Source: Minisyncoccota bacterium (GTDB taxonomy: Bacteria; Patescibacteriota; Minisyncoccia; Phycocordibacterales; UBA9973). Taken from it: a stretch of 64,000 nt of DNA. Positions 39,968-60,904 of the stretch are shown one piece after another; positions within the stretch are counted from its first letter, which is position 1; every line of letters begins with the position of its first letter. Both the position numbers and the translations under genes were made by a program. The notes under the pieces were generated by a model that saw only the letters and a program-made list of their open reading frames with translations, made no database searches and had not been told where the DNA came from. The DNA is taken from contig JBAYHJ010000001.1 of NCBI GenBank assembly GCA_041666225.1, positions 1,881 through 65,880 of the forward strand, given 5' to 3'.

Positions 39968-40002
39968 AAATTCCCATAGGTCAGACCTATGGGAATTTTT
40001 TT
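39968..40002. terminator. bidirectional hairpin aaaaattcccataggtc-aga-cctatgggaattttttt
   Basis: sequence. Confidence 0.7.
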
Positions 40003-41725
40003 ATACTACTGTTTTTAAATAATGTTCTTTACAATACAAATTTGGAGTATTCTCACTGTAAGCCGTGATGATTTCTTTATCACATAGAGAGAACGTGCAC
40101 TTCCCTGTTCTAAATATTGGTCCGTTGCGAAGTTTCATACGCTCAGCATGTCTGCAATTGGGGCACTTGGAAGGAAGAGGAATATTGAATCGTTGATAAA
40201 ATCCAAATTCATCGGGAATAATTTTAAAGGCTGTTGCACAATTCTTGTTCTCATCGCCATTATTTTCACATTCTATAATTTCCCCTGTAATGTTTTCAGT
40301 TACTTCAGAAATTAAATCTGGAATATCATCTACCAAAATAGTTGGTTTATAATTTCTTTGCTCTCTTATATACCACTCATACCCCTTCTCTTTTGCAACC
40401 CTTTCATTGAGTGGGAAGAATTCTTGTGCCGTAGTTTCATTATAAGCAAAAGGAGAAAGTTCAGACGGGAAGAATTCCCCATAACCATACGACAGTCCTT
40501 GATTGTCTTTGTAAGGCATCGCTTTCATCTGTTCAATAATTTTCTCTCGCAATATTTTATATTCCTCTTCTGTGTATTCTTTATTTAAAATATAAAATCC
40601 CTTTTTCCTTAAACCAATACAGCCAAACATATCGTGAGAGGTCATAATCTGAATACAATAATCTAGGTTCATATTCTCACTTGCAGAGAACCAAGAAAAA
40701 TTTACTCTTGAACCTCCATTGCCCCCTTGTAGGACTTCATATTGCAACTCAGTATTGAAACCAAATTGAGTATAATCATAACAATCTTTAGTATTTGAAG
40801 CCACTAAATATTGACAATATTTCAGATTACGTCCTTCATGAACAATCCAACTTTCTTTAATATCTTTTGAATTATAAATATAATCTCCTGTTGCATTGTC
40901 GTTCTGCTTTTCATGCATATACTTTGTAATTCCAGTTTTCCAGAATTCAACTACTTTTCTTTTAATATTTTTAATTCCTTTTCTAGAATCCAATTTCAAT
41001 TCTTTCAGTTTTTCCATATAGGCTTCTTTACTACCCATTGGTTCATTGAAAATGCAAAAGCTTTGTTTGCGTAAATTCACACAACCGAAACAATCAGTAC
41101 ATCCATTACAATCACGGCAAAACAGAATATCCGAAGAACTTTCACAATCAATAGAATAAAATGCCCTATAACAATTCTGAATATTCACACATTCATAGCA
41201 CATTTCTCCTTTATCTGTTAGATTAGTATCAAAACAATTTTTAGATTTTTCAACTTCACAGCCATACGAACAATCTTCATTAAAATCAGAATTAAACATT
41301 AGATAACAATTACGAAGATCAAGAACCATATTATTATATGGTGAATTTACCATACGTGATTCATCCACTACAAAGTTCGTCATGAAAGGCACTTCACTCA
41401 TTAATTCTTTATACTGTTCGAAGAATGGCTTTGAGAAATCGTAATCCCTCCCATATTTTGTCGCATCGAAATCATCACCCCACCAGCATTTCTGGCAAAC
41501 TATTTTGGTTTTTCCTCCTGGATGATAAATAGAAATTACATCATTATTACACATTTCACATGTCCTTTTGTATAAAGTTCTGTCATTTCTAAAAGTTAAA
41601 CGACGAATAAGCCGACACTCGGGGCAAAAGGTTGGTGCTGGCACTCCAATTTTCTCATAGAAATCAAAATCTTCACTTTCAATTTCAAAACTTTTTTTAC
41701 ATTGTTGGCAATTTTTTGTTTCCAT
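40001..41725 (-). CDS. cysteine-rich protein with N- and C-terminal zinc-ribbon modules (paralog A)
   Basis: 574 aa; N-terminal CQQC...FYEKIGVPAPTFCPECRLIRRLTFRNDRTLYKRTCEMC repeated near C-terminus (FYQRFNIPLPSKCPNCRHAERMKLRN); central region with dense CxxC/CxC repeats; paralog at 59219..60904. Confidence 0.7.
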   Translation of the reverse strand: METKNCQQCKKSFEIESEDFDFYEKIGVPAPTFCPECRLIRRLTFRNDRTLYKRTCEMCNNDVISIYHPGGKTKIVCQKCWWGDDFDATKYGRDYDFSKPFFEQYKELMSEVPFMTNFVVDESRMVNSPYNNMVLDLRNCYLMFNSDFNEDCSYGCEVEKSKNCFDTNLTDKGEMCYECVNIQNCYRAFYSIDCESSSDILFCRDCNGCTDCFGCVNLRKQSFCIFNEPMGSKEAYMEKLKELKLDSRKGIKNIKRKVVEFWKTGITKYMHEKQNDNATGDYIYNSKDIKESWIVHEGRNLKYCQYLVASNTKDCYDYTQFGFNTELQYEVLQGGNGGSRVNFSWFSASENMNLDYCIQIMTSHDMFGCIGLRKKGFYILNKEYTEEEYKILREKIIEQMKAMPYKDNQGLSYGYGEFFPSELSPFAYNETTAQEFFPLNERVAKEKGYEWYIREQRNYKPTILVDDIPDLISEVTENITGEIIECENNGDENKNCATAFKIIPDEFGFYQRFNIPLPSKCPNCRHAERMKLRNGPIFRTGKCTFSLCDKEIITAYSENTPNLYCKEHYLKTVV

Positions 41726-41944
41726 ATAATTTTTTTATTATTTATATTATCTCACAATTAATTCACAAATAATACTATTCACGAACTAAATAATGAGGGT
41801 TAATTTTAAAAAACTAACCCAAAATTATTAATACCATTTTACTATCATCACGACAGTTTTGAGTTTCAAGGAGGCATGGTGTCCACCTAACCAGAGGTTT
41901 CGATTACTTCATTCATCGAACTTTGTTTGGATTTTTCCAAGGCT

Positions 41945-42253
41945 CTAGGATCCAAGAAGAAATATGCGGATACTAGTTAGACATTCAATGTAATCTTTTG
42001 AAAAATTATCACCAATGCTAACCAAATATTCAATATGACTCCTCAGCGTCTTACCTTCGTACACATCTTCTAGGAGATTGTTATACTGAATGTTAGAGAA
42101 AACCTCCCTAGCACTTTCAACAGCTAACAACTCATGAAGCAGACAAAGTTTGAGCTCGAGAATTGAATTGAACATTATCATTATTTTTTCCAAAAAACTT
42201 CCACAAACTCGTGGTTCCAAGCAAGAAATCCTGATAAATGAAGAATATACCAT
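41945..42253 (-). CDS. small hypothetical ORF (possibly spurious; alternative 50-codon membrane ORF MKKMKEFLRDFSQNHPFLIVLIIFVIAWYILHLSGFLAW at 42330..42178)
   Basis: weak; overlapping alternatives. Confidence 0.2.
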   Translation of the reverse strand: MVYSSFIRISCLEPRVCGSFLEKIMIMFNSILELKLCLLHELLAVESAREVFSNIQYNNLLEDVYEGKTLRSHIEYLVSIGDNFSKDYIECLTSIRIFLLGS

Positions 42254-42504
42254 GCTATAACAAATATAATTAGTACAATTAAGAATGGATGGTTTTGAGA
42301 AAAATCCCTTAAAAACTCTTTCATTTTTTTCATGGCTTTTGATTTAATTGGTTTTCACAATTACTAAATAGGAACTCTGAGAACCAATCAAATCTTTTTT
42401 AATGAACTTTATTTACTATAATTATCCCATGTATTTAGTAATATGTCATATTTGTCGTCAATATTCAAAATTATGGACAAATACGCTTATATGGTATAAA
42501 ATAT

Positions 42505-43287
42505 ATGTTGTCGGTTTGTCCGACATATATGATTAAAGTTAAAAATGATATTAAACTATTAGAAAACTTGCATGAGTTCGGATTGCAGGAAAATGAAGCA
42601 AAAGTATATCTTGCTTCCCTTTCTCTTGGTCCCACCACAATACTTAATCTTTCTAAATATGGAGAAGTAAAGAGAACTACAGTATATGAAGTTGTGGATA
42701 GTCTTGAAAAGAAAGGTTTAATGAAAAAGGAGGTTCATGGATTTAAAACTTTATATTCACCAGAACATCCTGAACGATTAGAAAATACATTGGAATCAAA
42801 AAGAGTTCTTCTTTTTCGTGTACTTCCAGAACTTGAGGGTAAATATCACTTAAAAGGAACCGAAAGTTCTATTAAATATTACGAAGGGCTTAGTGCAATA
42901 AAAAATATTTATGATGACTTATTAAAAGATCTTAAACCACATGATTTTTACTATGCCATTTCAAATATCAGAGAATGGCAAGGGCTTGATGAAGATTTTT
43001 TTATAAAAAACCATGTTGAAAAAAGAGCTAAAATGAGTATAAATACCAAGCTTATTTTTACAGACTCCCCTACTGCTCAAAATAGAAAGAAAACTGAACG
43101 CAATTTTAATGAAGAAATAAAAATAATTCCAGATAGTACAAACATACACTTGGACTTCGTAATTACTCCATATAAATTAGTTATGTTTCAGCTTCACAAT
43201 CCTCTTATCGCTCTTGTAATAGAAAATCAAAGCATGATAAATGCCCAAAAAGAAATTTTCGATCTTCTTTGGAGTAAGAGTTCGTAG
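42505..43287 (+). CDS. TrmB-family transcriptional regulator (paralog 2)
   Basis: wHTH LQENEAKVYLASLSLGPTTILNLSKYGEVKRTTVYEVVDSLEKKGLM. Confidence 0.65.
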   Translation: MLSVCPTYMIKVKNDIKLLENLHEFGLQENEAKVYLASLSLGPTTILNLSKYGEVKRTTVYEVVDSLEKKGLMKKEVHGFKTLYSPEHPERLENTLESKRVLLFRVLPELEGKYHLKGTESSIKYYEGLSAIKNIYDDLLKDLKPHDFYYAISNIREWQGLDEDFFIKNHVEKRAKMSINTKLIFTDSPTAQNRKKTERNFNEEIKIIPDSTNIHLDFVITPYKLVMFQLHNPLIALVIENQSMINAQKEIFDLLWSKSS

Positions 43288-43496
43288 TAAAAAATACTAC
43301 AAATTCTGCCATGACAAAATTTGTAGCATTTTTCATAATACAAAGACTTAATTTGTCAAACACATAAAACCCTTGTTTTAAAATTAGCTTGGTATATAAT
43401 AGGATTACACCTATTTATTAGGGATCGTTTGCAAACGGTCGAATTATTATTCAATAGCATTTTATATTTTTGAAAGAAATTATAAAAACTAAAATA

Positions 43497-43769
43497 ATGA
43501 ATAAACAAGCATTAGTAGAACTAGTTCATGAAAAGCTCGGCGGTACAAAAGTACAAGCTGAAGAAGTTGTAAATGGATTGTTTGACGCTATCGTTGCTAC
43601 TTTGAAAAAAGGAGGCGAAGTATCAATCGCAGGTATTGGAATCTTTTCTGTTAAGGCACGTGCAGCCCGCATGGCTCGCAACCCTAAGACAGGAGAGCAA
43701 GTAAAAGTAGCTGCTACAAAAGTTCCAAAATTCCGTGCAGCAAAAGCTCTTAAAGACGCTGTAAAATAA
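43497..43769 (+). CDS. hup: DNA-binding protein HU
   Basis: MNKQALVELVHEKLGGTKVQAEEVVNGLFDAI...GIGIFSV..RNPKTGE; terminator hairpin 43793-43830. Confidence 0.9.
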   Translation: MNKQALVELVHEKLGGTKVQAEEVVNGLFDAIVATLKKGGEVSIAGIGIFSVKARAARMARNPKTGEQVKVAATKVPKFRAAKALKDAVK

Positions 43770-43950
43770 TTCACCACTCGGCGAATTAAATATTAACCAC
43801 TCTATTCTATCTAGGAGTGGTTTTTATTTTTAAAAAACAAAAACAAATAGTCTTATCAAAGGGGCTTTGGAGCGCGTCGGCGCGAGAACGGAGCAAATTT
43901 CTAGCAAGAAATTTGCGTACCCTTTGAGAAGAGCTATTTGTTGAAGTTTT

Positions 43951-44700
43951 TTATTCTAATAATAGTAATGCGAGCATTGATAAAACTCCAATCAATATAA
44001 TAAAAATTTGGATTATTGAGTGTTTAACATTTTTGGTTTTATGGAGTTCAGGGATAAGATCAGCAATAGCTATATAAATAAATCCCCCTGCGGCAATTGG
44101 GATAAAAAACAATGCTGTATTTTCAATTATATTCCCAAATAGAAAAACTATGAGAAGCCCAAAGATAGAAGCAAGTGCTGAAAGAAAATTAAACCATAAT
44201 GCTCTTTTTTTACTATAACCAGAATGAATCAATACCGCAAAATCACCTATCTCTTGTGGGATCTCGTGCAAAATAACAGCAATAGTCGTCGCAATACCGA
44301 CTGGGATACTAACCAAAAAACTTGCTCCAATTATTGCTCCATCTATAAGATTATGAAAACCATCTGTAAACAAAACCAACTTCCCTACCGGATGAATATG
44401 ATCTTCATTTTTATCTTCTCCGTGGTGATGCCAATGAATAAATTTTTCTATTATAAAAAATAATAAAATCCCAACTATAATTAAAATACTAGATAAATTA
44501 ACTCCGAGTTTGCCTTCAAATGCTTCCGGAATAATATGAAGAAAAGCATCACCAAGCAATGCCCCAATTGCCAAACTTATAAAAAAATTAATATATTTTT
44601 TTAATATTTCTTCTTTTAAAGATAAAGAAAAAACGCCAACCAAAGAAACAAGGCTCACAAGTATCACACTTCCAAATGCATATAAATAATTTGTTAACAT
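43951..44700 (-). CDS. zupT: ZIP-family zinc transporter
   Basis: multi-TM; ZIP signature HEIPQEIGDFAVLIHSGYS; start trimmed to MLTNYLY to avoid overlap with tRNA-Pro. Confidence 0.8.
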   Translation of the reverse strand: MLTNYLYAFGSVILVSLVSLVGVFSLSLKEEILKKYINFFISLAIGALLGDAFLHIIPEAFEGKLGVNLSSILIIVGILLFFIIEKFIHWHHHGEDKNEDHIHPVGKLVLFTDGFHNLIDGAIIGASFLVSIPVGIATTIAVILHEIPQEIGDFAVLIHSGYSKKRALWFNFLSALASIFGLLIVFLFGNIIENTALFFIPIAAGGFIYIAIADLIPELHKTKNVKHSIIQIFIILIGVLSMLALLLLE

Positions 44701-44707
44701 AATATTG

Positions 44708-44780
44708 TCGGGGTGCCGGGATTCGAACCCGGAGTCGCCTGTTCCCAAAACAGGAATGTTAGCCGTTACACCACACCCCG
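44708..44780 (-). tRNA. tRNA-Pro (anticodon UGG)
   Basis: manual cloverleaf: C1:G72 acceptor CGGGGUG/CACCCCG, anticodon stem CCUGU/ACAGG, loop UUUGGGA, T-loop UUCGAAU. Confidence 0.85.
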
Positions 44781-44879
44781 ATGTAATTTTCTTATAGTAT
44801 CATATTTTACAATAAATACAATTTTATATAGTTTTTAGTTGAATTAATATTTCAAATAGTGTATATTATTTTAGTGTTT

Positions 44880-44950
44880 GCGGGATTAGTTTATCGGTAA
44901 AATAACAGTTTTCCAAACTGTGGTGAAGGGTTCGACTCCCTTATCCCGCA
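44880..44950 (+). tRNA. tRNA-Gly (anticodon UCC)
   Basis: acceptor GCGGGAU/AUCCCGC, anticodon stem ACAGU/ACUGU, loop UUUCCAA, T-arm AAGGG-UUCGACU-CCCUU. Confidence 0.85.
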
Positions 44951-45083
44951 CAGAAAAAAATCACCCATTGGGGTGTTTTTTGTGCGGGATAGCAAGTAAA
45001 CTTCTTTACTTGCGTAAGGGAGGCGAAAGATTTTTCTTTATTTTGATTTTAATCAAAATAGAAAAATACCCGAATAGGTTGTA

Positions 45084-45110
45084 TTCGACTCCCTTATCCC
45101 GCACTATAAA
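45084..45110 (+). repeat. direct repeat of the tRNA-Gly(UCC) 3' end (ttcgactcccttatcccgcac), 133 nt downstream of the intact gene
   Basis: 23-nt exact match to 44928..44950; intervening 44951..45083 is hairpin-rich. Confidence 0.75.
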
Positions 45111-45520
45111 ATTATATTTTCAATCTTTTTAACTCTGGCTTTTCTATTTTCGAGATCTAAATAAACAACCAATAAATCAAATTGCCAATCAGTATACCCC
45201 AATCTTTTACTTATAAGATACGTTTCCACTACCCTTCGCAATCTTTTCAATTTCCATGGATGCATATTTTCTTCTGGTCTTCCACTTGTGTTTATGTTTA
45301 ATTCATTCTGTTTAAAATAATAATCTAAATCAGAAACACTCTTGGATTTAACTTCAATAAAATATAAAATCTCATCTTTTTTAGCAATAATATCTATTTC
45401 TCCCCATTTTTTCGTATAGTTTCGTTCCAATACCGAAAAACCTAAATTGGAAAGATAATTGCAGGCAACATCTTCTCCTATCTCACCTATTTTCTGAGAA
45501 TTTGAAGTAAAATTCTTCAT
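45104..45520 (-). CDS. yraN: YraN/UPF0102-family putative endonuclease
   Basis: 138 aa; IGEIGEDVACNYL...GEIDIIA motif. Confidence 0.75.
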   Translation of the reverse strand: MKNFTSNSQKIGEIGEDVACNYLSNLGFSVLERNYTKKWGEIDIIAKKDEILYFIEVKSKSVSDLDYYFKQNELNINTSGRPEENMHPWKLKRLRRVVETYLISKRLGYTDWQFDLLVVYLDLENRKARVKKIENIIL

Positions 45521-45900
45521 ATATAATAGTTTTGTGACATGCGATTTAGCAAAATCGTGTCGCGCAGTGTCGACTAAAGCGCGACGAACCCATAATTAGT
45601 TTCATGTGTAACTTGATATTTGTCATAATATCTTGGTTTATTTACAATCAATCGTTTCACGTGAAACGATTTCAATATAATGGACATGAAATTCGATTCA
45701 TAATAATATTTCATAAAAATATTCTTATTTATCAAGGTATTTATCGCTTCATCTAAAATTTGTCTTACAAAAACTTAATCTCAATAGTTGTCTTTTATAA
45801 ACAATACACACATGGTTATCCACAAAATTCTTAATTTCCAAGGCTTTTCAATGTGGATAAGGGACGAATAAAGGTCAAAGTATTTTATGATATTATATTT

Positions 45901-45974
45901 TGGTGCGGGATAGGGGAATCGGACCCCTGTCAAATGATTGGCAACCATTTGTTCTACCACTGAACCAATCCCGC
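45901..45974 (-). tRNA. tRNA-Gly (anticodon GCC), CCA encoded
   Basis: GCGGGAUUGGUUCAGUGGUAGAAC...anticodon loop UUGCCAA...GGUCCGAUUCCCCUAUCCCGCACCA. Confidence 0.85.
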
Positions 45975-46110
45975 AAACATAAAATAACTCATAAATTATA
46001 ATCATTTTTGACAAAAAATGCAATTGTAATAATATGCTTATTTTAAAAGCTTATTTACTAAATTATCAAACTAGTGTACAATTAAATAGTAAAATTATTA
46101 AAAGTAACTC

Positions 46111-46182
46111 TGCGCCCGTAGCTCAACGGATAGAGTACCGGTCTTCGGAACCGTGGATGTGGGTTCAATTCCTGCCGGGCGC
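46111..46182 (+). tRNA. tRNA-Arg (anticodon UCG; isotype from manual fold)
   Basis: acceptor GCGCCCG/CGGGCGC, D-arm GCUC-AACGGAUA-GAGU, anticodon loop CUUCGGA, T-loop UUCAAUU. Confidence 0.7.
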
Positions 46183-46335
46183 ACAAGTGTTTATTAATCT
46201 TCACTTCTGTAGATTGATAGCTTGTGCGAAGTGGAGCCCTGTTTTGTTAGTAAACAAAACAGGCGAGCCAGGGTCGTGAAAATATATTTGTGACGACAAA
46301 TAAATTATTCCTGACCACAAGCGATATATTTAAAT

Positions 46336-47895
46336 ATGTTTCCCATGAAACAAACAACCATAAACAACAATCTAATTCCTAACTATGTTACACATGTAAC
46401 ACAAACACTCGAAAATGCTGGTTTTGAGGTCTTTTTGGTTGGTGGTTGTGTTCGTGATCTTATTATGTCGCAGATACTGGAAGTAAAAAGGGGACCAAAA
46501 GACTGGGATATTACTACAAATGCTATTCCTGAAGAAATCATTCCATTATTTGAAAAAACTATATACGAGAATAATTTTGGAACAGTTGGAGTTTGTATTC
46601 CCGTTGATGATGTTACACATGAAACAGATTCAAACGTTACACATGTAACAAATAGTATAAAATATAACATTTTGGAGGTTACACCGTATAGAACTGAAGC
46701 AAAATATAGTGATTTTAGACATCCAGACGAAGTACAATTTAGTGATAACATAGAAGATGACCTTAAGAGACGTGACTTCACAATAAATGCCCTGGCTTAT
46801 AATCCACATAAAGGACAGATTATTGACCTTTATAAAGGACAAGAAGATATAAAAGACATGGTGATTAGAGCTGTTGGAAATCCTAATGATAGATTCCAAG
46901 AAGATGCTCTTAGGATGCTACGTGCCATACGATTCGGAACTCAATTAAATTTCGCCTTATCATATGACACTATGCAGGCAATAGTGGATAATGCTCATTT
47001 ATTAAAAAATATCTCATTTGAAAGAATCCGAGATGAATTTGTAAAAATCATAATGTCTGAATCTCCAATGATTGGAATTGGTTTACTTTCAAAGCTTGAT
47101 CTCCTAAAATATATTATTCCTGAACTTGAAGAGGGAATTGGATGCGAACAAAAAGGTGAACATATATATGATGTATGGGAACACCTTCTTCATGCTCTTG
47201 ACCATGCAGGCAATAAAGGCTGGTCGCTTGAAGTACGCTTGGCTGCACTGTTTCACGATATTGGAAAACCAAAAACTAGACGCTGGGATGGAACCAAAGC
47301 TGGAGGGAAGGGGAAATATACATTTTACGGACACGAAGTAGTGGGAGCAAGAATGACAAAAATAATATTAGAAAGACTTAAATTCCCAAAGAAAACTAGC
47401 GATTTAGTTTTAAAACTTGTCCGTGGACATATGTTTTTCTCTGATACTGAAATGATCACGCTCTCGGCTGTTCGTCGAGTTGTTCAAAATGTTGGGAAAG
47501 AACACATTTGGGATCTCATGAATGTTCGTGAGTGTGACCGGGTAGGAATGAAAAAGAAAGAAGCCCCTTATCGCTTGCGAAAATACCACGCTATGATAGA
47601 CGAGGTTCTACATGATCCAATATCTGTCGGCCAGCTAGTAATTGATGGTAAATATATGATTGAGGTGTTACACATGAAACCAAGTCCGAGAATGGGCTGG
47701 ATTCTGAGTGCTTTACTTGAGGAAGTACTAGATGATCCAAATAAAAATACAGAGGAACACTTAGCTGAATTAGTAAGATCCCTAGATATGCTCGGCGATG
47801 CCGAACTTAAAACCTTGGGAGATAGGGGAAAAGAAAAACAAGAAAAGCTAGAGGAAGAAGAAATTGACAAACTTCACAAAAAGCATGGGGTATAA
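46336..47895 (+). CDS. cca: CCA-adding enzyme / poly(A) polymerase-family tRNA nucleotidyltransferase with HD domain
   Basis: 519 aa; GGCVRDLIM, RRDFTINALAY, HD motif LAALFHDIGKP; contains VTHVT-encoding palindromic gttacacatgtaac repeats at 46387, 46634. Confidence 0.85.
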   Translation: MFPMKQTTINNNLIPNYVTHVTQTLENAGFEVFLVGGCVRDLIMSQILEVKRGPKDWDITTNAIPEEIIPLFEKTIYENNFGTVGVCIPVDDVTHETDSNVTHVTNSIKYNILEVTPYRTEAKYSDFRHPDEVQFSDNIEDDLKRRDFTINALAYNPHKGQIIDLYKGQEDIKDMVIRAVGNPNDRFQEDALRMLRAIRFGTQLNFALSYDTMQAIVDNAHLLKNISFERIRDEFVKIIMSESPMIGIGLLSKLDLLKYIIPELEEGIGCEQKGEHIYDVWEHLLHALDHAGNKGWSLEVRLAALFHDIGKPKTRRWDGTKAGGKGKYTFYGHEVVGARMTKIILERLKFPKKTSDLVLKLVRGHMFFSDTEMITLSAVRRVVQNVGKEHIWDLMNVRECDRVGMKKKEAPYRLRKYHAMIDEVLHDPISVGQLVIDGKYMIEVLHMKPSPRMGWILSALLEEVLDDPNKNTEEHLAELVRSLDMLGDAELKTLGDRGKEKQEKLEEEEIDKLHKKHGV

Positions 47896-49224: not shown

Positions 49225-50190
49225 ATGAAAAAAAATGAAAACAAAATAATAATATATCAGGCTCCTTCTGGAGCCATTGAATTTCGTGGGGATATCAAAA
49301 GTGAAACAATTTGGGCAACACAGGCTCAGATTGCTGAAGTTTTTAATGTAGAAAGATCAGTTATTACAAAACATATTAGAAATATATTAAAAGATAAGGA
49401 ACTTGAAAGATCTTCAGTATGTGCAAAATTTGCACATACTGCCAGTGATGGAAAAACCTACCAAGTAGAACACTACAATTTGGATGTTGTTTTGTCTGTG
49501 GGCTATCGTACAAACTCAAAGATTGCCATAGCTTTTCGACAATGGGTGACTAAGACCTTGCGAGAGCATATTACAAAAGGTTACACCATAAACCGTAAAC
49601 AGATAGCCAAGAATTATGATTCCTTTATGCAAACTGTTGCTAGTATTCAAAATTTATTACCAGAGAATATTACTCTTGACCCAAAGGTAGTTTTGGAATT
49701 AATCAAAGAATTCGCAAGTACTTGGATATCACTCGATGCCTATGATAAAGAATTACTTCAAATAAAAGGAGTTACAAAGAAAAGTATTAAATTAACAGGG
49801 GGTGAATTACTTTCTGCTATTTCAAATTTAAAAAATGAATTAATTAAAAAAGGAGAAACCACAGATTTATTTGCGACCGAAAGACAAAAAGGAAGTGTGG
49901 AGGGTATAGTTGGTAATGTAATGCAAACATTTGGAGGTAAACCACTTTATGAAACTGCTGAAGAAAAAGCAGCGCATCTTCTGTATTTCATGGTGAAGAA
50001 TCATCCTTTCATAGATGGGAATAAACGTTCAGGTGCATTCACTTTCATTTGGTTTATAAGAAAAACAAGAATAAAAGGTTTTAAAAATATAAATCCAGCA
50101 ACATTAACCACACTCACACTTCTAATTGCCGAAAGTGATCCTAAAGATAAAGAGCAGATGGTTGCACTCGTTACCCAATTACTAAAATAA
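49225..50190 (+). CDS. RhuM-family N-domain fused to Fic/Doc domain protein
   Basis: 321 aa; RhuM-like ...ETIWATQAQIAEVFNVERSVITKHIRNI...HYNLDVVLSVGYR; Fic motif HPFIDGNKRSGA. Confidence 0.8.
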   Translation: MKKNENKIIIYQAPSGAIEFRGDIKSETIWATQAQIAEVFNVERSVITKHIRNILKDKELERSSVCAKFAHTASDGKTYQVEHYNLDVVLSVGYRTNSKIAIAFRQWVTKTLREHITKGYTINRKQIAKNYDSFMQTVASIQNLLPENITLDPKVVLELIKEFASTWISLDAYDKELLQIKGVTKKSIKLTGGELLSAISNLKNELIKKGETTDLFATERQKGSVEGIVGNVMQTFGGKPLYETAEEKAAHLLYFMVKNHPFIDGNKRSGAFTFIWFIRKTRIKGFKNINPATLTTLTLLIAESDPKDKEQMVALVTQLLK

Positions 50191-50198
50191 TATTTTTA

Positions 50199-53069: not shown

Positions 53070-53118
53070 ATAAAAAAACCGCGCTGACATCAGTGCGGTT
53101 TTTTGTTTCAAAAATATA

Positions 53119-53572: not shown

Positions 53573-55708
53573 ATGCAAAGTAAAGAATACGAAGTAGAAA
53601 TCGGTGGCAAGAAAATTGTCGCATTTTTTAGTGATTTAGCTGACCAAGCAAATGGTTCAGTAATTTTAAAAAGTGAGGGGACAGTAGTTATGGCTACAGC
53701 CGTCATCTCAAAAGATGGAAGTAAAAATTTAGGATTTTTTAATCTAACAGTCGAGTATTTAGAAAAGTTTTACGCTGCTGGAAAAATTCTTGGTGGACAA
53801 TACAATAAGAGGGAGGGCCGACCAAGTGACCAAGCTATCTTGGCTGCTCGCATGATCGATCGTACTATCCGTCCGCTTTTCGATCATCATATAAAAAATG
53901 CTGTGCAAGTAATTGTCACAGTAATTGCAGTAGGAGAAACTGATCCAAAAGTTTTAGGAATCAATGCGGCATCAGTGGCATTACAAATGTCTGACATCCC
54001 TTGGAACGGTCCAATTGGTGCAGTTCAAATAAGTAAAACAAGTGATGACAAAGAAGTAAAAGTAAATCACTATATCCCAAGTCAAGACGAATCAGTGTAC
54101 GCACTTGATCTTCTTGTTTGTGGAAAAGATAAAACAATCAACATGATCGAAGCGATGGCATATGAATTAAACGAAGAAGAAATGGGGAGTTGTTTTGATC
54201 TTGCTTCTAGTGAAATCACAAAGTGGGAAGATTTCCAAAAGAAACTTCAAGGTGAATTTGGTAAGACGAAACTTGTATTTCCAAAGCCGGTAATAGATGA
54301 AAGTGTTACCACTCTCTTTAATGAAAAAATTAAATCAACACTCGATGCAAAACTTTTCACTAAAGAAAGTAAAAAAATTTCAAGTGAAGTTGAGGCTCTT
54401 TGGAGTGAATTATTAAAAGAAAAATATCCAAATGAAGAAGATGAAGCAACACTTAGTGCGGCTGAAGATTATTTACATCATTACTTAGACAATGAGTTCC
54501 ATAGAGTTGCATTGGAAAATGGAACTCGTGCTGATGGAAGAAAAGTTGATGAGATACGAAAACTTTTTGCTAAAGCAGGTGGAGTGTCTCCTGTGTTACA
54601 CGGTTCTGGAATATTTTACAGAGGGGAAACACACGTTCTATCGGTGCTCGCACTTGGTGGGCCTGAAGATATGCTACTTGTGCAAGGAATGGAATCTGAA
54701 TTAAAAAAACGTTTCATACATCACTACAATTTCCCTCCGTACTCAGGTGGTGAGACAGGGCGTGTTGGTGGAATCAATCGTCGTGAAATGGGTCACGGAT
54801 TTTTAGCAGAAAAAGCACTCACTCCAATTATTCCAAATAAAATAAATTTTCCTTATACGATTCGTGTTGTGTCTGAATCAACAGCTTCAAACGGTTCAAC
54901 TTCCCAAGCTTCAATCTGTGCAGCAACTCTTGCTTTGATGGATGGAGGTGTCCCAATCAAAAGTCCGGTAGCTGGAATTTCTGTCGGACTAATGGCAAGT
55001 GAAAAAGATGAAAATAAATATGTTTTACTTTCTGATATTCAAGGACCGGAAGATCACTACGGAGACATGGATTTCAAAGTTGCTGGCACAAAAGATGGTA
55101 TCACGGCAATTCAACTTGATGTGAAAGTAGATGGAGTCAGAATCCCGATTTTAAAAGAAGCACTTGTCCGCGCAAAAAATGCACGTCTAGAAATTCTTGA
55201 AACTATCACAAAAGAAATCGCATCACCACGCGCAAGTATTTCTCCAAGGGCTCCGATGATATTAACTATTAAAATTAAAAAAGATCAAATCGGAATGGTT
55301 ATTGGCCCCGGTGGAAAAAACATCAATGCAATTCGAGAAGAAACAGGAACTGAAATTACAATCGAGGAAGATGGAACAGTTTTTGTCACAGGTAAAAATG
55401 GAGGGGCGGAAAAAGCAGTCAAGATAATTGAGGATATGACTCATGAATACAAGATTGGAGAGAAAGCTGATGGCGAAGTTGTAAAACTTATGGATTTTGG
55501 AGCCTTTGTTCGCATTGGACATGACACTGAGGGCTTAGTTCACATTTCAGAAATAGCCCCATTCCGTGTTGAGAAAGTTTCTGATATTCTTAAGGAGGGG
55601 GATAAAGTTCCCGTGAAAATAATCAAAGTGGATGAGAGAGGCAGATTAAACTTTTCAATCAAAGATGCAGATAGTAATTTTTTCAAGAAACCAGAATTAG
55701 ATAAATAA
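53573..55708 (+). CDS. pnp: polyribonucleotide nucleotidyltransferase (PNPase)
   Basis: 711 aa; two RNase PH domains, KH (GMVIGPGGKNI) and S1 domains. Confidence 0.95.
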   Translation: MQSKEYEVEIGGKKIVAFFSDLADQANGSVILKSEGTVVMATAVISKDGSKNLGFFNLTVEYLEKFYAAGKILGGQYNKREGRPSDQAILAARMIDRTIRPLFDHHIKNAVQVIVTVIAVGETDPKVLGINAASVALQMSDIPWNGPIGAVQISKTSDDKEVKVNHYIPSQDESVYALDLLVCGKDKTINMIEAMAYELNEEEMGSCFDLASSEITKWEDFQKKLQGEFGKTKLVFPKPVIDESVTTLFNEKIKSTLDAKLFTKESKKISSEVEALWSELLKEKYPNEEDEATLSAAEDYLHHYLDNEFHRVALENGTRADGRKVDEIRKLFAKAGGVSPVLHGSGIFYRGETHVLSVLALGGPEDMLLVQGMESELKKRFIHHYNFPPYSGGETGRVGGINRREMGHGFLAEKALTPIIPNKINFPYTIRVVSESTASNGSTSQASICAATLALMDGGVPIKSPVAGISVGLMASEKDENKYVLLSDIQGPEDHYGDMDFKVAGTKDGITAIQLDVKVDGVRIPILKEALVRAKNARLEILETITKEIASPRASISPRAPMILTIKIKKDQIGMVIGPGGKNINAIREETGTEITIEEDGTVFVTGKNGGAEKAVKIIEDMTHEYKIGEKADGEVVKLMDFGAFVRIGHDTEGLVHISEIAPFRVEKVSDILKEGDKVPVKIIKVDERGRLNFSIKDADSNFFKKPELDK

Positions 55709-55735
55709 AATAATAGTTTTGTTTATAAAAAAAAT

Positions 55736-56638
55736 ATGGATGAAAATAAACCACAACAAAATGACACCGACATAAAAGTTCTCCGAACATATACTTCTGA
55801 TATGGCCGATGCTGTTCGAATAAACGAAATGTCTGTGATCAAAATAGCTCTTGCTGAAAAAGAAAAACGTGAAAGGGAAGAGATATACAAAAAAGCCGAA
55901 GGAACAAATACTTCAAAAACTTTTCTAGTAATTGGAGGTATAATTTTAATCGCTGTTGCAATTTTTGGATCTTATTTTATTTTTCAAAAAACAAAAGAAA
56001 AGAAAATCCCACCACAGATAACGACAAATATTGAGACAATTATAACATATGATTCAAAATCAAATATAGATGTAACAAATATAACTGGTATAAGTGATTT
56101 AATTTCTGAAATAAAAAAAGGGCAAGATTCAAATCCAAGTTTGATTAAAGCACTTTTCTTTATAAAAAATAATAATGGTATAACCGAAAATATTAGTTCT
56201 AGTAATTTTCTCTCATTAATTAAAACATCAGCACCCGGAGCACTCATAAGATCATTGTCTGATAAATATTTGTTTGGAAAATATTCAAACTCAAATGCAA
56301 TAAATGAAAAAGATAAATATGCAACTTTTTTAATCTTTCAAACAAACAATTATACTCAAACCTATGCTTCAATGCTTGATTGGGAAAAAACAATGTTAAA
56401 AGATTTATTTACTATTTTTGAAATCACTATACCAGAATCAGAAAATTCATTATTTGAAAAACCATGGAAAGATCTAATTGTAAACAATAAAGATGTTCGT
56501 GTATTATATGGAGACACCGGAGAAGGCATACTGTATTATGTTTTTGTAAACAAAGATAATCTTGTTATTGCCAATAACTTGGAAACACTGAAAGAAGTTA
56601 TGTCGAGAATAATAATAAAAAATACTCAACCACTCTAA
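55736..56638 (+). CDS. hypothetical single-pass membrane protein
   Basis: 300 aa; TM FLVIGGIILIAVAIFGSYFIF. Confidence 0.5.
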   Translation: MDENKPQQNDTDIKVLRTYTSDMADAVRINEMSVIKIALAEKEKREREEIYKKAEGTNTSKTFLVIGGIILIAVAIFGSYFIFQKTKEKKIPPQITTNIETIITYDSKSNIDVTNITGISDLISEIKKGQDSNPSLIKALFFIKNNNGITENISSSNFLSLIKTSAPGALIRSLSDKYLFGKYSNSNAINEKDKYATFLIFQTNNYTQTYASMLDWEKTMLKDLFTIFEITIPESENSLFEKPWKDLIVNNKDVRVLYGDTGEGILYYVFVNKDNLVIANNLETLKEVMSRIIIKNTQPL

Positions 56639-56677
56639 ATAGTTGTCAAATACTCAATAAATGTTAATATAATAATT

Positions 56678-57040
56678 ATGAATGTTAAAATTTACAAAGA
56701 AAAATTAGAGGAGGAAAAGAAGTTATTAGTAGAAGAACTCGGAGGGCTTGGTCGTGTAGATAAGACAGGGGACTGGGAAGCTGTTCCAGAAAATGAGACA
56801 GCAAGCCAAGAAGTCCCAGATGAAGGAGATCTAGCAGAGAGAGCTGAAGATTATGAAGAACGTTCCATTAAACTCAATACCCTCGAATCAAGACTAGGGG
56901 ATATCAATAAAGCTTTAGAAAAAATCAATAGTGATAATTATGGAATCTGTGAAAATTGCAAAAAAGAAATCGAAGAAGACCGATTAGAAGTAAATCCTGC
57001 AGCTAAAACATGCAAGGATTGTATGGAAAAAGTGTTATAA
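56678..57040 (+). CDS. DksA/TraR-family C4 zinc-finger protein
   Basis: 120 aa; CENCKKEI...CKDCMEK; terminator 57044-57077. Confidence 0.7.
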   Translation: MNVKIYKEKLEEEKKLLVEELGGLGRVDKTGDWEAVPENETASQEVPDEGDLAERAEDYEERSIKLNTLESRLGDINKALEKINSDNYGICENCKKEIEEDRLEVNPAAKTCKDCMEKVL

Positions 57041-57086
57041 ATTAAAACCCCCAAAACAATTATTTTGGGGGTTTTACATTAAATAT

Positions 57087-58655
57087 ATGTCATTCTCGAG
57101 AATTTATTCAGCACAAACACATTTATTAAAAGGAAAAATTGTAACTATTGAAGTTGATATTACAAAAAAGACTCTTCACTCTTTTACTTTAGTTGGGCTG
57201 CCAGATAAAGCTGTCGACGAATCAAAAGACCGAATGAGTTCTGCTTTAAAAAACTCAGGATACAATTCTCCTAAAAATCAAAATCAAAAAATTGTTATTT
57301 CACTTTCTCCAGCTGATCTTAAAAAAGAGGGGCCATATTTTGATTTAGCAATTGCGCTTTCTTACCTTCTTTCTGCCGAAGAAATAAATTTTAATCCTGA
57401 TGGAAGAATTTTTCTGGGAGAATTGTCATTAAACGGTGAACTACGTCCCATAAAAGGGGCATTGCCATTAACTCAAGAAGCTAAAAAACTTGGTTATAAA
57501 GAAATATTCTTACCAATTGAAAATGCTGAAGAGGCTGCGCTTGTGGATGATATTAAAATATATGGAGCAAAAAATCTAAAAGAAGTAATTGATCATATTT
57601 ATATACCAAAGACAGATAAAAAGGGTAATTTAATAGAAAAAGAAAGACCCAAAATATCTATCTTCCCAAAAACTGAAATCCTACACAAAGAAAGATCTGG
57701 GAATATTGATTTTTCAGATATCAAAGGTCAAGAAGGGGCAAAAAGGGGACTTGAGATAGCAGCTAGTGGTGGACACAATATCGCTATGTCTGGCCCACCT
57801 GGTACAGGGAAAACAATGTTGGCGCGCGTTTTTTCGCACATTCTTCCCGATTTAGAAAAAGATGATTGTTTAGAAATTACAGGAATACACTCAGTTGTTG
57901 GACTACTTGAAGATGCATTAATTACCGAATCCCCCTTTCGTGCTCCGCACCATACCGCAAGTTATGTCTCAATGATTGGAGGTGGAACAAATCCAAAACC
58001 GGGAGAGGTTACACTTGCACACCGTGGAGTTTTATTTCTCGATGAATTTCCAGAATTTGAAAAAAGGGTTTTAGAAGCTCTTCGCCAGCCACTTGAAGAC
58101 AATGTCGTCTCAATTTCTCGCGCCCGTGGTTCAGCGATTTTTCCATCAAATTTTATCCTCGTTGCGGCAATGAATCCTTGTCCTTGTGGAAATAAAGGCA
58201 ACAAACAAAAAGAGTGTATTTGTAAACCAATTGATTTAGATCGGTATAAAAGAAAACTCTCAGGTCCTATAATGGATCGAATTGATATTTGGGTTACAGT
58301 TAGCAATGTAGATTATGAAAAGCTTTCAAATAACACACAGGAAGGTGAAAAAACTTTTACGATAAAAGAAAGGGTCAAAAAAGCTCGTGATATTCAAAAT
58401 AAACGGTTTAAAAATGCGGAGAGAAAAATAAACACAAATAGTGAAATAAATGTAAAAGAATTAAATATTTACGCTCCACTTGATAATGAAACAAAAAAAT
58501 TACTAAACCAAAGTGCTGAGCGCCTACAACTCTCAGCCCGAGCCTACCACCGCACCATCAAACTCGCTCGCACCATCGCCGACCTAGAAGGTAGTGAAAA
58601 TATAACTCAATCTCATATCTTGGAAGCACTCCAATACAGACCAAGAGAAAATTAA
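57087..58655 (+). CDS. comM: ComM/YifB-family Mg-chelatase-like AAA+ ATPase
   Basis: 522 aa; Walker A GPPGTGKT, Walker B VLFLDEFPEF, C-terminal ChlI-like domain. Confidence 0.85.
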   Translation: MSFSRIYSAQTHLLKGKIVTIEVDITKKTLHSFTLVGLPDKAVDESKDRMSSALKNSGYNSPKNQNQKIVISLSPADLKKEGPYFDLAIALSYLLSAEEINFNPDGRIFLGELSLNGELRPIKGALPLTQEAKKLGYKEIFLPIENAEEAALVDDIKIYGAKNLKEVIDHIYIPKTDKKGNLIEKERPKISIFPKTEILHKERSGNIDFSDIKGQEGAKRGLEIAASGGHNIAMSGPPGTGKTMLARVFSHILPDLEKDDCLEITGIHSVVGLLEDALITESPFRAPHHTASYVSMIGGGTNPKPGEVTLAHRGVLFLDEFPEFEKRVLEALRQPLEDNVVSISRARGSAIFPSNFILVAAMNPCPCGNKGNKQKECICKPIDLDRYKRKLSGPIMDRIDIWVTVSNVDYEKLSNNTQEGEKTFTIKERVKKARDIQNKRFKNAERKINTNSEINVKELNIYAPLDNETKKLLNQSAERLQLSARAYHRTIKLARTIADLEGSENITQSHILEALQYRPREN

Positions 58656-58680
58656 TGTTGGAAGTCGGACTTCCAACATT
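58654..58680. repeat. REP2 palindrome immediately after the comM stop codon
   Basis: aatgttggaagtcggacttccaacatt. Confidence 0.8.
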
Positions 58681-58799
58681 TTAAATTTCTTTATCGAGGC
58701 GCTTGGCTTCAGCCCAAGAAAGTTCGTAAATTTTTTTCATCGCATCAGCAATTTCAGCATTATTTTGTAAAGCTAATAAAAGATGTATTATTAATAGAT

Positions 58800-59210
58800 A
58801 TGGAAGAAAAAAGACACAACTCAATGCTCATTCCCTATTATTTTAAAAAAAATAATCTTTATGTTTTCTTACAAAGAAGAAATGATGACGCTCCAAGAAA
58901 CCCAAATATCTTAGGTGGATTCGGTGGAGGATTAGAAGGAGAAGAAAATAATGAGGATGCATTAATACGAGAAATGAATGAAGAATTAGAATATACTCCA
59001 AAAAATTATTCCCTTCTCGGAACTTTTGAAACTGATCATTCAATATCTAATTACTACATCGAAGAAGTCGATGAAAATTTTGAGAACAATGTTATTGTGC
59101 ATGAAGGAAAGAGAGGAGAATGGCATGAGGCAATAAAAGTTGTTGAGAGAGACGATATTAGTCCAAACACGAAAAGAGTTATTAATTCAATAATTTTAAA
59201 ATTTCGTTAA
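58800..59210 (+). CDS. Nudix-family hydrolase (divergent)
   Basis: 136 aa; GGFGGGLEGEENNEDALIREMNEEL approximates the Nudix box; 8-nt gap to the next gene. Confidence 0.55.
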   Translation: MEEKRHNSMLIPYYFKKNNLYVFLQRRNDDAPRNPNILGGFGGGLEGEENNEDALIREMNEELEYTPKNYSLLGTFETDHSISNYYIEEVDENFENNVIVHEGKRGEWHEAIKVVERDDISPNTKRVINSIILKFR

Positions 59211-59218
59211 TAAATTAT

Positions 59219-60904
59219 ATGACAAAAGAAAAATGCAAAACATGTGAGAAAGATTTTGTAATAAGAGATGAAGATCTTGTTTTTTATGAACAAATGAAAA
59301 CAGTCCCTCCAGTTGATTGCCCTGATTGTCGTATGGCAAGAAGGTTAGTTTTTCGCAATGAAAGAACCTTATATAAAAGAACTTGTGATCTTTGTAAAAA
59401 AGATATGGTCGCTTTGTATACTCAAGAATCAAAATTTAAAGTTTACTGTCATGATTGTTGGTGGAGCGATAATTGGAATCCAAAAGATTATGCACAAGAT
59501 TATGATTTCTCAAAAACATTTTTTGAACAGTTTAGAGAATTAATGATGAAAGTTCCACGGATTGGAATGCTGGCATTTAATAATGTTCGAAGTGAATACA
59601 CAAATGGCTCAGCCGAAAACAAAGATTGTTATTTAATTTTTGCAGCTGATTATAATGAGGACTGCTTATATAGCAGATTACTTCAACGTGACAAGGGTTG
59701 TGTAGATTGCGCCTTCCTCCATGAATCAGAGTTGTGTTATGAATGTATCGATACTCGAAAATGTTTTAAATGTATGTATTCGGAACAATGTCAGTCATCA
59801 AGTGATTTATTGTTTTGTTTTAATATGAGAGATTCTCAAAATTGTATTTTTTGTACAAATGGCAGGCATATGTCGAACTATATTCTAAATCAAAAGTGTA
59901 CAAAAGAAGAATATGATAAAAAGAAAAAAGAAATACTTTCAAATTATGAAAGTATTGAAAAAGCTAAAAAAGAATTTATAGAAATAAAAAAGAAGGCTAT
60001 CATGAAATTTACTTCTCAAAGTAAGTGCCACAATGTTACAGGGGACTATATTCACAACTGTTATGATGGAGTTAGGCTTTATGACACTTATGATGCAAAA
60101 AATTGTTCTTATATGAAGGACACCGAGAACCCAACTGACAGCTGGGATTGTAATAATTATTATTACAAATGTCAGTTTGGTTACAATATAATGGGCGCAT
60201 TACAAATTAGTAATTGTAAAAATTGTGCTTTTGTATTTTATTCGAATAATCTGGAATATTGTGAAAATTGTTATCATCTATCAAATGGATTTGGTTGTCT
60301 CGCAATTCGTAAGGGTCAAAATATGATTTTAAATAAAGAATATGAAAAAGAAGAATACCTAAAAATAAGAAAACAAATTGAGGATGAAATGAAAAAAGAT
60401 GGAACTTGGGGTCAATATTTCCCTGCAAGCATCGCTCCTTTCTCATACAACGAAGCGCTCTCACAAGACTTCTTTCCTTTATCAAAAGAAGAAGCAATAA
60501 AAAGAGGTTTTACTTGGCAAGAAAAAACAACTGGAACTTACGGAAAAGAAACCATCGAAAAAGGAGAAATTCCTAATTCTATAGAAAAGGTTACCGAAGC
60601 TATTTTAAAAGAAATTTTAGTTTGTGAAGATTGTAATAAAAATTATCGCCTTGTCCAAGCTGAATTGGAATTTTACAAAAGAATGAATTTACCAATCCCT
60701 CATAAAGATTTTGAGTGTCGTCATCAAGATAGAATGAAAAAAAGAAACACAAAAGAACTTTACCCTCGTTCATGTATGTGTAAAAACGAAAAACATATAA
60801 ATCACAATGGCGTTAATTGTTCAGAAAAACTTGAGACAACTTATGCTCCAGACCGACCAGAAATAATTTATTGTGAAAGTTGTTATCAACAAGAAGTAGC
60901 ATAG
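59219..60904 (+). CDS. cysteine-rich protein with terminal zinc-ribbon modules (paralog B)
   Basis: 561 aa; CKTCEKDF...FYEQMKTVPPVDCPDCRMARRLVFRNERTLYKRTC; same architecture as 40001..41725. Confidence 0.7.
   Translation: MTKEKCKTCEKDFVIRDEDLVFYEQMKTVPPVDCPDCRMARRLVFRNERTLYKRTCDLCKKDMVALYTQESKFKVYCHDCWWSDNWNPKDYAQDYDFSKTFFEQFRELMMKVPRIGMLAFNNVRSEYTNGSAENKDCYLIFAADYNEDCLYSRLLQRDKGCVDCAFLHESELCYECIDTRKCFKCMYSEQCQSSSDLLFCFNMRDSQNCIFCTNGRHMSNYILNQKCTKEEYDKKKKEILSNYESIEKAKKEFIEIKKKAIMKFTSQSKCHNVTGDYIHNCYDGVRLYDTYDAKNCSYMKDTENPTDSWDCNNYYYKCQFGYNIMGALQISNCKNCAFVFYSNNLEYCENCYHLSNGFGCLAIRKGQNMILNKEYEKEEYLKIRKQIEDEMKKDGTWGQYFPASIAPFSYNEALSQDFFPLSKEEAIKRGFTWQEKTTGTYGKETIEKGEIPNSIEKVTEAILKEILVCEDCNKNYRLVQAELEFYKRMNLPIPHKDFECRHQDRMKKRNTKELYPRSCMCKNEKHINHNGVNCSEKLETTYAPDRPEIIYCESCYQQEVA

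Follow-up and report, generated by a model that had tools for sequence, protein, structure and literature searches.

A Patescibacteria-wide family of proteins with paired zinc fingers at both ends, represented by two diverged paralogs in a Minisyncoccota genome

Patescibacteria, or candidate phyla radiation (CPR) bacteria, represent a large part of bacterial diversity; most are uncultured, and their genomes measure about 1 Mb. Where such small genomes retain a gene family in many copies, that family is likely to be important to the lifestyle of these bacteria. Here we describe one such family through two paralogous genes, A and B, of a Minisyncoccota bacterium (Patescibacteriota; Minisyncoccia; Phycocordibacterales; UBA9973), both encoded in a stretch of 64,000 nucleotides (GenBank assembly GCA_041666225.1, contig JBAYHJ010000001.1, positions 1,881 to 65,880 of the forward strand) that we refer to as the window. 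Together, A and B represent a very large, unnamed family of soluble cytoplasmic zinc proteins, ~560–600 residues long, within which they diverged long ago.

The closest described domains are zf_Tbcl (PF13451) and zf_Tbcl_2 (PF23477, TIGR04272), from which the terminal modules of the A/B family are built. These entries are single fingers of ~40 residues, themselves functionally uncharacterised, whereas in the A/B family the two kinds are fused in tandem, the pair stands at both ends of the protein and ~380 unassigned residues lie between. Among cysteine-zinc chaperones, the known comparisons are the DnaJ zinc-finger region and the zinc centre of Hsp33. Both share with the family Cys-coordinated zinc and a cytoplasmic location, and in some lineages the family gene lies inside a grpE-dnaK locus; however, the family lacks a J domain and CxxCxGxG repeats and is matched in Pfam by neither chaperone, and the locus link comes from closely related genomes. 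Metallothioneins are small and very rich in Cys (about 15–30%), which is arranged in CxC/CxxC clusters; we rejected this class for A and B, which have 561–574 aa, 5.7–7.0% Cys and at most one CxC. Left-handed beta-helix proteins (LpxA, LpxD, GlmU, gamma-carbonic anhydrase) are, like the predicted centre of A and B, a stack of very short strands, and they are the sole kind among the weak fold matches. These matches reach at best E=0.02, with a TM score below 0.1 on the query, and are accompanied by no hexapeptide-repeat sequence match; the A/B repeat is an [N/D]-C ladder with a 6/12-residue period, whereas hexapeptide proteins have an 18-residue turn.

[quoted passage not shown] According to a 2025 study, 2,918 Patescibacteria genomes hold 5,713 VirD4-like homologues, only 148 of them near virB4; the VirD4-like homologue tested there was not essential for epibiotic growth, and exaptation was left possible (PMC12102498). 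The accessible text of that study describes strongly diverged VirB2 pilin arrays and makes no mention of the A/B family (PMC12102498). Like these pilins, the family forms arrays of diverged paralogs, and its arrays are physically linked to VirD4/TraG/HerA-like ATPases. It differs from the pilins in being a zinc protein of ~570 residues with no hydrophobic segment, and the array-linked ATPases differ from VirD4 coupling proteins in that they appear soluble, one class bearing a CxxC-x17-CxxC finger.

The two proteins of the window, of 574 (A) and 561 (B) aa, are 35% identical end to end (BLASTP, E=6e-115) and contain 33 (5.7%) and 39 (7.0%) Cys, in agreement with an initial annotation, made from the sequence and its open reading frames (ORFs), that had described a cysteine-rich paralogous pair of ~570 aa and placed its outer coordinates exactly (Table 1). 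They lie on opposite strands, as also recorded there together with a distance of ~19 kb: 19.2 kb separates their low coordinates, and 17.5 kb lies between the two genes. By homolog search, the nearest relative of A is a 90% identical protein of Candidatus Nomurabacteria, a match that assigns the window organism to that lineage, and B has orthologs, 66–85% identical, in many Paceibacterota genomes. Proteins of the A/B type contain no hydrophobic segment and are acidic as a whole (median net charge −7).

Both ends of each protein carry a two-finger module. A 25-position motif that had been reported at both termini is matched at 22 (A) and 19 (B) positions in the N-termini and at 12 and 13 positions in the C-termini, with no more than 6 of 25 elsewhere, and the proposed duplication of a terminal zinc-binding module is borne out by alignment of the N- with the C-module (HHalign 99.5%, E=1e-22). 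In family alignments, which comprised 37 relatives and later 148 sequences, each module is a zf_Tbcl-type treble clef followed by a CxxC-x17-CxxC, or zf_Tbcl_2-type, finger, giving four fingers numbered ZnF1 to ZnF4. ZnF1 and ZnF3 follow the pattern C-x2-C..F..FY..VP.P..C-P-x-C-R, ZnF1 with the spacing C-x2-C-x24-C-x2-C. The treble-clef layout is present in the predicted model of A, where strands 2–5 and 12–15 flank C6/C9 and C34/C37 open helix 35–43. The zf_Tbcl model matches 15 of the 37 relatives at E<=0.1 (best E=3.5e-6); B residues 4–42 score 19.6 bits (E=8.9e-4), below the gathering threshold of 24 bits, and A gives no match. The window proteins are sub-threshold, and the family as a whole is clearly related. 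ZnF2 is spaced exactly C-x2-C-x17-C-x2-C in both A and B (C56, C59, C77, C80). PF23477 matches 7 of the 37 relatives (best E=3.9e-4) and TIGR04272 matches 4 (best E=0.011), neither model matching the window proteins. The National Center for Biotechnology Information (NCBI) and JGI name such fingers 'CxxC-x17-CxxC domain'.

The ligand columns of the termini are 83–100% Cys in the 148-sequence alignment, and 98–100% in ZnF1; the exception is ZnF2, at 64–88%, which is lost in about a third of family members. One ZnF3 Cys is replaced by Asp in B, and one ZnF4 ligand is His in A. Each of the four terminal Cys4 (or Cys3His, Cys3Asp) sites, as modelled, most likely binds a single structural zinc ion. 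Both modules begin with a mildly basic finger (median net charge +2 and +5) in an otherwise acidic protein, and near-invariant Arg residues directly follow the second CxxC (R38/R41/R42 and R525/R529).

Between the modules lie a duplicated core and a conserved linker. Structure prediction, one of the checks suggested with the initial annotation, gave an AlphaFold2 (AF2) model of A, based on the 148-sequence alignment, with a predicted local distance difference test (pLDDT) score of 91.7 and a predicted TM score (pTM) of 0.93; the fingers are hairpin-plus-helix units, and the repeat-built centre is a long run of 1–4-residue strands that recur at a 3/6/12-residue period. The core is duplicated internally: its halves R1 and R2 align with each other (HHalign 99.7%, E=1.6e-26; residues 126–240 versus 276–387 in B numbering), and both end in 'FGC..LR.K.Y.I.N..Y.KEEY' and then a helix. 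On this model, we read the centre as an internally duplicated beta-solenoid-like region. The AF2 model of B, based on a shallow alignment of 37 sequences, has a pLDDT of 75.6 and is confident at the termini only. In the linker, G416, F418, P420, S424, Y428, N429 and A433 are near-invariant, and the median net charge of residues 404–480 is −6. In this anatomy, and in the description of the family as a whole, we have high confidence.

The many Cys residues of the centre had been described as dozens of CxxC/CxC repeats, a reading that does not survive counting: the central CxxC motifs number five in A and six in B, with no CxC, among 18 and 23 central Cys. The corresponding columns range from 25 to 96% Cys, and near-invariance is limited to C212 and C369 (A numbering), which occupy matching 'FGC' positions in the two halves. 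Because the columns swap with Ser, Val, Ile and Leu and follow the period of the strands, the central Cys are better explained as ladder positions than as obligatory metal ligands; in the predicted fold they are most likely, for the most part, inward-facing ladder positions of the solenoid and not metal-cluster motifs. Correlations in Cys co-presence across the centre, computed to look for optional metal sites there, were dominated by subfamily signal and were set aside.

These same residues bear on the possibility that the protein is an enzyme, either a left-handed beta-helix protein of the acyltransferase type or an Fe-S or radical-SAM-type maturase that uses the central Cys. Across the 148 aligned sequences, a CxxCxxCxxC run (A residues 206–215) is 75–94% Cys, many polar positions, N381, K382 and N429 among them, do not vary within the family, and the weak Foldseek matches are uniformly to left-handed beta-helix enzymes (GlmU, LpxA/D, gamma-carbonic anhydrase). 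However, these matches are not significant (E>=0.02, TM<0.2, root-mean-square deviation [rmsd] 12–21 Å; the best has E=0.02 and TM 0.07), most central Cys columns exchange with other residues as described above, and there is no evident conserved His/Asp/Cys triad. A hexapeptide-repeat transferase was rejected on this best Foldseek score and on the lack of any Pfam match in the centre at E<=10. A radical-SAM or Fe-S protein was rejected likewise, as the Cys positions include no CxxxCxxC motif and neither PF04055 nor a ferredoxin model is matched even at E<=10; one member matched TIGR04471 at a chance-level E=0.019. Already weakly disfavoured, an enzyme is the reading to which we give the least credence.

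Conservation is distributed unevenly along the protein. Across the family, sequence entropy is lowest in the fingers and linker (1.6–2.0 bits) and highest in the solenoid halves (2.3–2.4 bits), whereas within ortholog groups it is lowest in the solenoid halves (0.4–0.7 bits); of the 53 columns whose fixed residue differs between the A-type and B-type groups, 34 lie in these halves. By these measures, the fingers and linker are conserved family-wide and the solenoid is paralog-specific. Because of this pattern, we propose that the proteins are zinc-stabilised adaptors or scaffolds whose paralogs recognise different targets. Four structural zinc sites would hold the fingers; the fingers and linker, common to the family, would serve as 'handles' that dock on a shared partner or nucleic acid; and the solenoid surface, variable between paralogs and fixed within ortholog groups, would give each paralog its own target. 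Taken alone, this adaptor mechanism is doubtful, though worth serious consideration.

Database comparisons assigned neither the whole protein nor its centre. No Pfam or NCBIfam model covers the whole protein, and none matches the central ~380 residues even at E<=10, which leaves about two thirds of each protein outside any known domain. PHROGs returned only phrog_15341, of unknown function (E=2.5e-4). Neither A nor B matches PADLOC-DB 2.0, and on this ground a known anti-phage defence system was rejected. Sequence searches of the PDB with B, a full-family profile and a terminal-module profile found nothing better than E=0.11, and Foldseek found no match at E<=0.001 for either model in the PDB, nor any in the viral structures of BFVD; in the latter, one finger can be superposed locally with a few 'zinc-ribbon domain' proteins of phages (41 residues, rmsd 0.6 Å), with no global match. 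A literature search turned up nothing published on the family or on its finger domains, and public names of members are 'hypothetical', 'uncharacterized' or 'Zinc-binding domain-containing protein', with one 'Zn ribbon nucleic-acid-binding protein' from JGI. The architecture had initially not been recognised as a characterised family, and that assessment stands; the confident match to a radical-SAM maturase or known metalloprotein that would have spoken against it did not appear. Four features appear not to have been described before: the paired and duplicated arrangement of the fingers, the core and linker of ~380 residues, the tandem arrays and the linkage to the ATPase. The finger types themselves are already known and no new mechanism has been demonstrated, which makes this a kind of multi-zinc-finger protein and not a categorically new system. 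In annotation terms, these findings support a new family model, and they set a real structural feature apart from over-readings, namely metal-cluster repeats and a Nudix partner (see below).

A search with the family profile retrieved 5,354 clusters (50% identity), of which 2,230 reached E<=1e-30. Among species-representative genomes there were at least 571 matches, and every informative title named a Patescibacteria lineage (Nomura-, Staskawicz-, Lipton-, Harrison-, Jorgensen-, Abawaca-, Peregrini-, Peri- and Gracilibacteria, Paceibacterota); a couple of the titles seem to belong to contigs that were binned wrongly. The family is thus apparently confined to Patescibacteria. This check of phylogenetic distribution had been suggested at the outset, with neither the size nor the range of the family foreseen; the tandem arrays and the VirD4/HerA-like ATPase link were also missed. 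No match was found in 50,697 phage genomes or 72,556 plasmids, and viral contigs yielded a single 49-residue fragment; a mobile-element or phage origin was rejected accordingly. With thousands of clusters, and able to fill more than 12 kb of a tiny genome, the family is nonetheless unnamed and has no curated model or structure.

In other genomes, family genes often stand in tandem. In an unbiased clustering of flanking ORFs from related loci (designated here by L numbers), family genes were most often neighboured by further family genes: 83 such ORFs, all of them same-strand, were present in 43 of 80 loci. Two to seven same-strand copies were present in 51 of 87 sequences scanned, and in six sequences six or seven copies, separated by gaps of 0–100 nt, filled the whole 10–12 kb locus; independent gene calls confirmed the tandem copies. 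Since median identity within an array is 41%, and the best match of 115 of 127 copies lies in another genome, the copies are to be regarded as old and anciently diverged. At three positions (L023 5786–7533, L077 1742–3532, L011 1709–3361), two adjacent ORFs cover complementary parts of the profile; these split copies are either pseudogenes or assembly or frameshift errors.

After family genes themselves, the next commonest neighbour is an ATPase with DUF87, T4SS-DNA_transf, TrwB or TraG-D_C similarity. Among multi-copy loci, 16 of 50 encode this VirD4/HerA-like ATPase, as against 0 of 38 among single-copy loci (Fisher p=4e-5, for loci that are not phylogenetically independent). In most cases the gene directly adjoins the array in same-strand orientation, sometimes on both sides, and it is found in genomes of both the Paceibacteria type and the Peregrini-/Gracilibacteria type. 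No membrane-anchor-like segment was seen in the array-flanking ATPases, which are apparently soluble. The PF23477 finger, of the same type as ZnF2 and ZnF4, is present in all five long-class ATPases tested (42–56 bits; threshold 27), and HHalign against the ATPase fingers that pass PF23477 gave probabilities of 96.7% for ZnF2 and 85% for ZnF4. A homolog search with the ATPase finger returned only seven short proteins and no new architectures. By length, at least three classes of the ATPase can be told apart, Walker A lying near residue 42, 64 or 337; in the first of these classes, a CxxC-x17-CxxC finger precedes a long low-complexity tail. Against PADLOC mad8 the array-flanking ATPases score E=1e-13 to 4e-15, with the mad8 and HerA models matching only weakly.

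An apparently soluble, finger-bearing VirD4/HerA-like ATPase of this kind, flanking arrays in other Patescibacteria, would be the best candidate for the shared partner of the adaptors. We favour this combined explanation, of zinc-protein anatomy plus an adaptor with paralog-specific recognition and the ATPase as candidate partner, tentatively, at somewhat less than an even chance. In a broader version, the family and the soluble finger-bearing ATPases would constitute one system, so far unrecognised, throughout the Patescibacteria: a hexameric motor, derived by exaptation from type IV secretion, would select different macromolecular targets by means of interchangeable adaptors, one per paralog, encoded in arrays of up to seven or more. 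This version is speculative and unlikely to be correct in full. If true, it would assign a role to the thousands of orphan homologues of coupling proteins left unexplained by the 2025 study (PMC12102498). The ATPase link offers a testable lead on the roughly two orphan coupling-protein homologues per Patescibacteria genome, a question raised by that work (PMC12102498).

The same linkage could be read in terms of secretion, the arrays encoding effectors or substrates that a VirD4-type coupling protein passes to a T4SS and into host cells, with paralog diversity reflecting host range. Coupling-protein-like ATPases do flank the arrays, the family proteins show no Sec signal, as would be expected of T4SS substrates, and the diverged tandem arrays resemble those of VirB2 pilins as described in PMC12102498. 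But the flanking ATPases show no membrane-anchor-like segment, and according to the same study nearly all VirD4-like homologues lie far from virB4 and the one tested is not essential for epibiotic growth (PMC12102498). Moreover, orthologs are strongly conserved (about 70% identity for the B type across many genomes) and are found in housekeeping operons, in contrast to fast-evolving effectors; four fingers locked by zinc would be expected to hinder unfolding for translocation; and the family was found neither on plasmids nor in phage genomes. Secreted effectors are in our view very unlikely.

Several observations weigh against the adaptor explanation with an ATPase partner as well. Function is deduced from anatomy and gene neighbourhood only, and both zinc occupancy and solenoid geometry depend on the AF2 model, which for B is poor in the centre (pLDDT about 50–65, from a shallow alignment). 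The ATPase is present in only 16 of the 50 multi-copy loci, many arrays run off the 10–12 kb loci, the loci of this census are not phylogenetically independent samples, and a common finger domain is no proof of physical interaction. Finally, the window holds no VirD4/HerA-like ATPase, and A and B, like many copies elsewhere, stand singly in housekeeping operons. Because the window copies and many others are single and have no ATPase beside them, this partner is not obligatory for every member.

The main alternative to the ATPase as common partner is nucleic acid. Besides A and B, which are dispersed singletons, family genes occur singly in varied housekeeping operons, such as those with the gene order IleRS, family gene, RecO (with 8- and 4-nt overlaps) or GluRS, family gene, M23; a further operon has the order family gene, family gene, MetAP. 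The family might be a housekeeping nucleic-acid-binding factor for RNA, tRNA or DNA, in which the end fingers grip, the solenoid is a rigid spacer and paralogs have different targets. This overlaps the adaptor explanation, the main difference being nucleic acid as the common ligand. It accords with the basic first fingers and their near-invariant Arg residues, with the tight operons shared with IleRS and RecO, GluRS and MetAP, with the abundance of RNA-metabolism genes in the window (RNase Y, PNPase, CCA-adding enzyme, tRNAs, ComM) and with the JGI name of one member. Yet the protein as a whole is acidic, no known nucleic-acid-binding domain was detected, and the neighbours vary from locus to locus, except for TrmB and M23 in one lineage; information-processing genes make up most of a Patescibacteria genome, and neighbours of this kind are therefore to be expected from chance. 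We regard a nucleic-acid-binding factor as rather unlikely, albeit a reading to be kept in view.

One recurrent array position would fit a chaperone. In at least seven loci from related Paceibacteria (L020, L022, L026, L029, L038, L041, L055), the array lies between grpE and dnaK, in the order GrpE (+), one to four family genes (+), PaaX (−), DnaK (+) (for example L026, about 4986–10186), followed in some by a VirD4-like ATPase and more copies. DnaK is 79–91% identical across these loci, and the observations are therefore not independent. A zinc- or redox-dependent holdase or Hsp70 co-chaperone, analogous to the DnaJ zinc finger and Hsp33, or else a zinc buffer, would suit this position, the cysteine-rich composition with four predicted zinc sites and the presence of zinc transport within a few kb (ZIP in the window and in L008, L010, L013 and L016; Zur-ZnuABC in L087). 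Against it stand the relatedness of the grpE-dnaK genomes, the absence of DnaK and GrpE from the window, the placement of ZIP 3.5–4.5 kb away in a larger synteny block and a Cys content of 5.7–7%, far from that of metallothioneins. A DnaJ-type co-chaperone in particular was rejected, as no J-domain, DnaJ_CXXCXGXG or other CxxCxGxG match was found and the HPD tripeptide occurs in only 16 of 148 members. This chaperone or zinc-buffer role is improbable; like the effector and enzyme readings, it has some support and more against it.

Table 1. Coordinates of genes A and B, their parts and associated features. Positions refer to the window except where a related locus (L number) is given.
Feature	Position	Strand	Remarks
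Paralog A	40001..41725	−	574 aa; stop codon included; from the ORF list
A N-terminal two-finger module, residues 1–92	41450..41725	−	ZnF1 C6/C9/C34/C37; ZnF2 C56/C59/C77/C80
A solenoid half R1 and capping helix, residues 131–265	40931..41335	−	Short strands in model; R1–R2 HHalign
A solenoid half R2 and capping helix, residues 266–403	40517..40930	−	Holds paralog-specific columns
A conserved acidic linker, residues 404–485	40271..40516	−	Motif YGEFFP..SPF.YNET.AQE.FPL
A C-terminal two-finger module, residues 486–574	40004..40270	−	ZnF3 C486/C496/C521/C524; ZnF4 C543/C548/C565/H568
Paralog B	59219..60904	+	561 aa; stop codon included; from the ORF list
B N-terminal two-finger module, residues 1–92	59219..59494	+	C6/C9/C34/C37 and C56/C59/C77/C80
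B duplicated solenoid R1 and R2 with capping helices, ~residues 128–394	59600..60400	+	Boundaries transferred from A via alignment
B conserved linker, ~residues 395–468	60401..60622	+	From alignments
B C-terminal two-finger module, residues 469–561	60623..60901	+	ZnF3 C469/C472/D497/C500; ZnF4 C519/C534/C552/C555
Nudix hydrolase gene	58800..59210	+	PF00293, E=1.7e-10; ends 8 nt before the B ATG
Terminator-like hairpin after ComM, upstream edge of Nudix-B unit	58654..58680	+	Copy of dispersed palindrome
Terminator-like hairpin, 19-bp stem	60931..60972	+	27 nt past the B stop codon
TrmB-family regulator, divergent from A	42505..43287	+	PF01978, E=1.1e-14
VirD4/HerA-like ATPase examples	L065 2908–4992; L085 7214–9625; L022 9396–11681; L073 1815–4088; L054 2–2050		

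In the window, B follows a Nudix hydrolase gene to which it had been described as translationally coupled. The two are separated by an 8-nt gap, with no overlap and no Shine-Dalgarno-like purine run in the gap, which does not confirm the coupling. Because terminator-like hairpins bracket the pair (Table 1), a shared transcript is plausible, and Nudix and B are probably co-transcribed. Conservation of the Nudix partner, a check likewise suggested at the outset, failed: at E<=1e-4 there were Nudix matches in 0 of 88 related loci, with one weak match 747 nt downstream in L056. Orthologous B loci (L001–L003) have HAD and TrmB, TMEM175 or ComM upstream in place of Nudix, and the Nudix gene beside B is a local accident.

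A 21-nt palindrome, GTTGGAAGTC(G/C)GACTTCCAAC, occurs five times in the window (18874–18894, 19533–19553, 19776–19796, 58657–58677, 61013–61033) against an expectation of zero in 100 shuffles. Two copies, followed by T-runs, score as terminator-like and bracket the Nudix-B unit; the palindrome looks like a dispersed repetitive extragenic palindromic (REP)-like element or a shared terminator.

TrmB homologs are found near family genes in 12 listed loci (13 matches) and in L004, and their divergent pairing with a family gene, as seen for A, is frequent in the Nomurabacteria lineage. The spacer between A and TrmB (41726–42504) is unusually long, at about 780 nt. An Rfam scan of the window found only four tRNAs and no structured RNA in this spacer, and a 102-aa ORF within it (41945..42253) was rejected as a conserved upstream gene, having no homologs in related loci; it is probably spurious.

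A ZIP zinc transporter (PF02535, E=1e-43) is encoded in the 43951–44780 region of the window, 2.2 kb from A. Since its listed TTG start at 44748 overlaps tRNA-Pro (44707–44780), the true start is probably an ATG near 44700. ZIP recurs 3.5–4.5 kb from family genes in L008, L010, L013 and L016, and a tight functional link was rejected on account of this distance and its position inside a synteny block. Elsewhere, a small acylphosphatase-like ORF lies directly beside a family gene in five loci (L008 6701–6994, L010 6686–6967, L014 1256–1555, L016 3670–3945 and L090 11784–12050, with a PF00708 match in L090), which recalls HypF, a protein that combines an acylphosphatase domain with paired zinc fingers. 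Finally, a RhuM/Fic-domain protein of the window (49225–50190) matches the candidate defence model PDC-S23 at E=5e-110 and adjoins ExoIII and an XerC/D-like recombinase.

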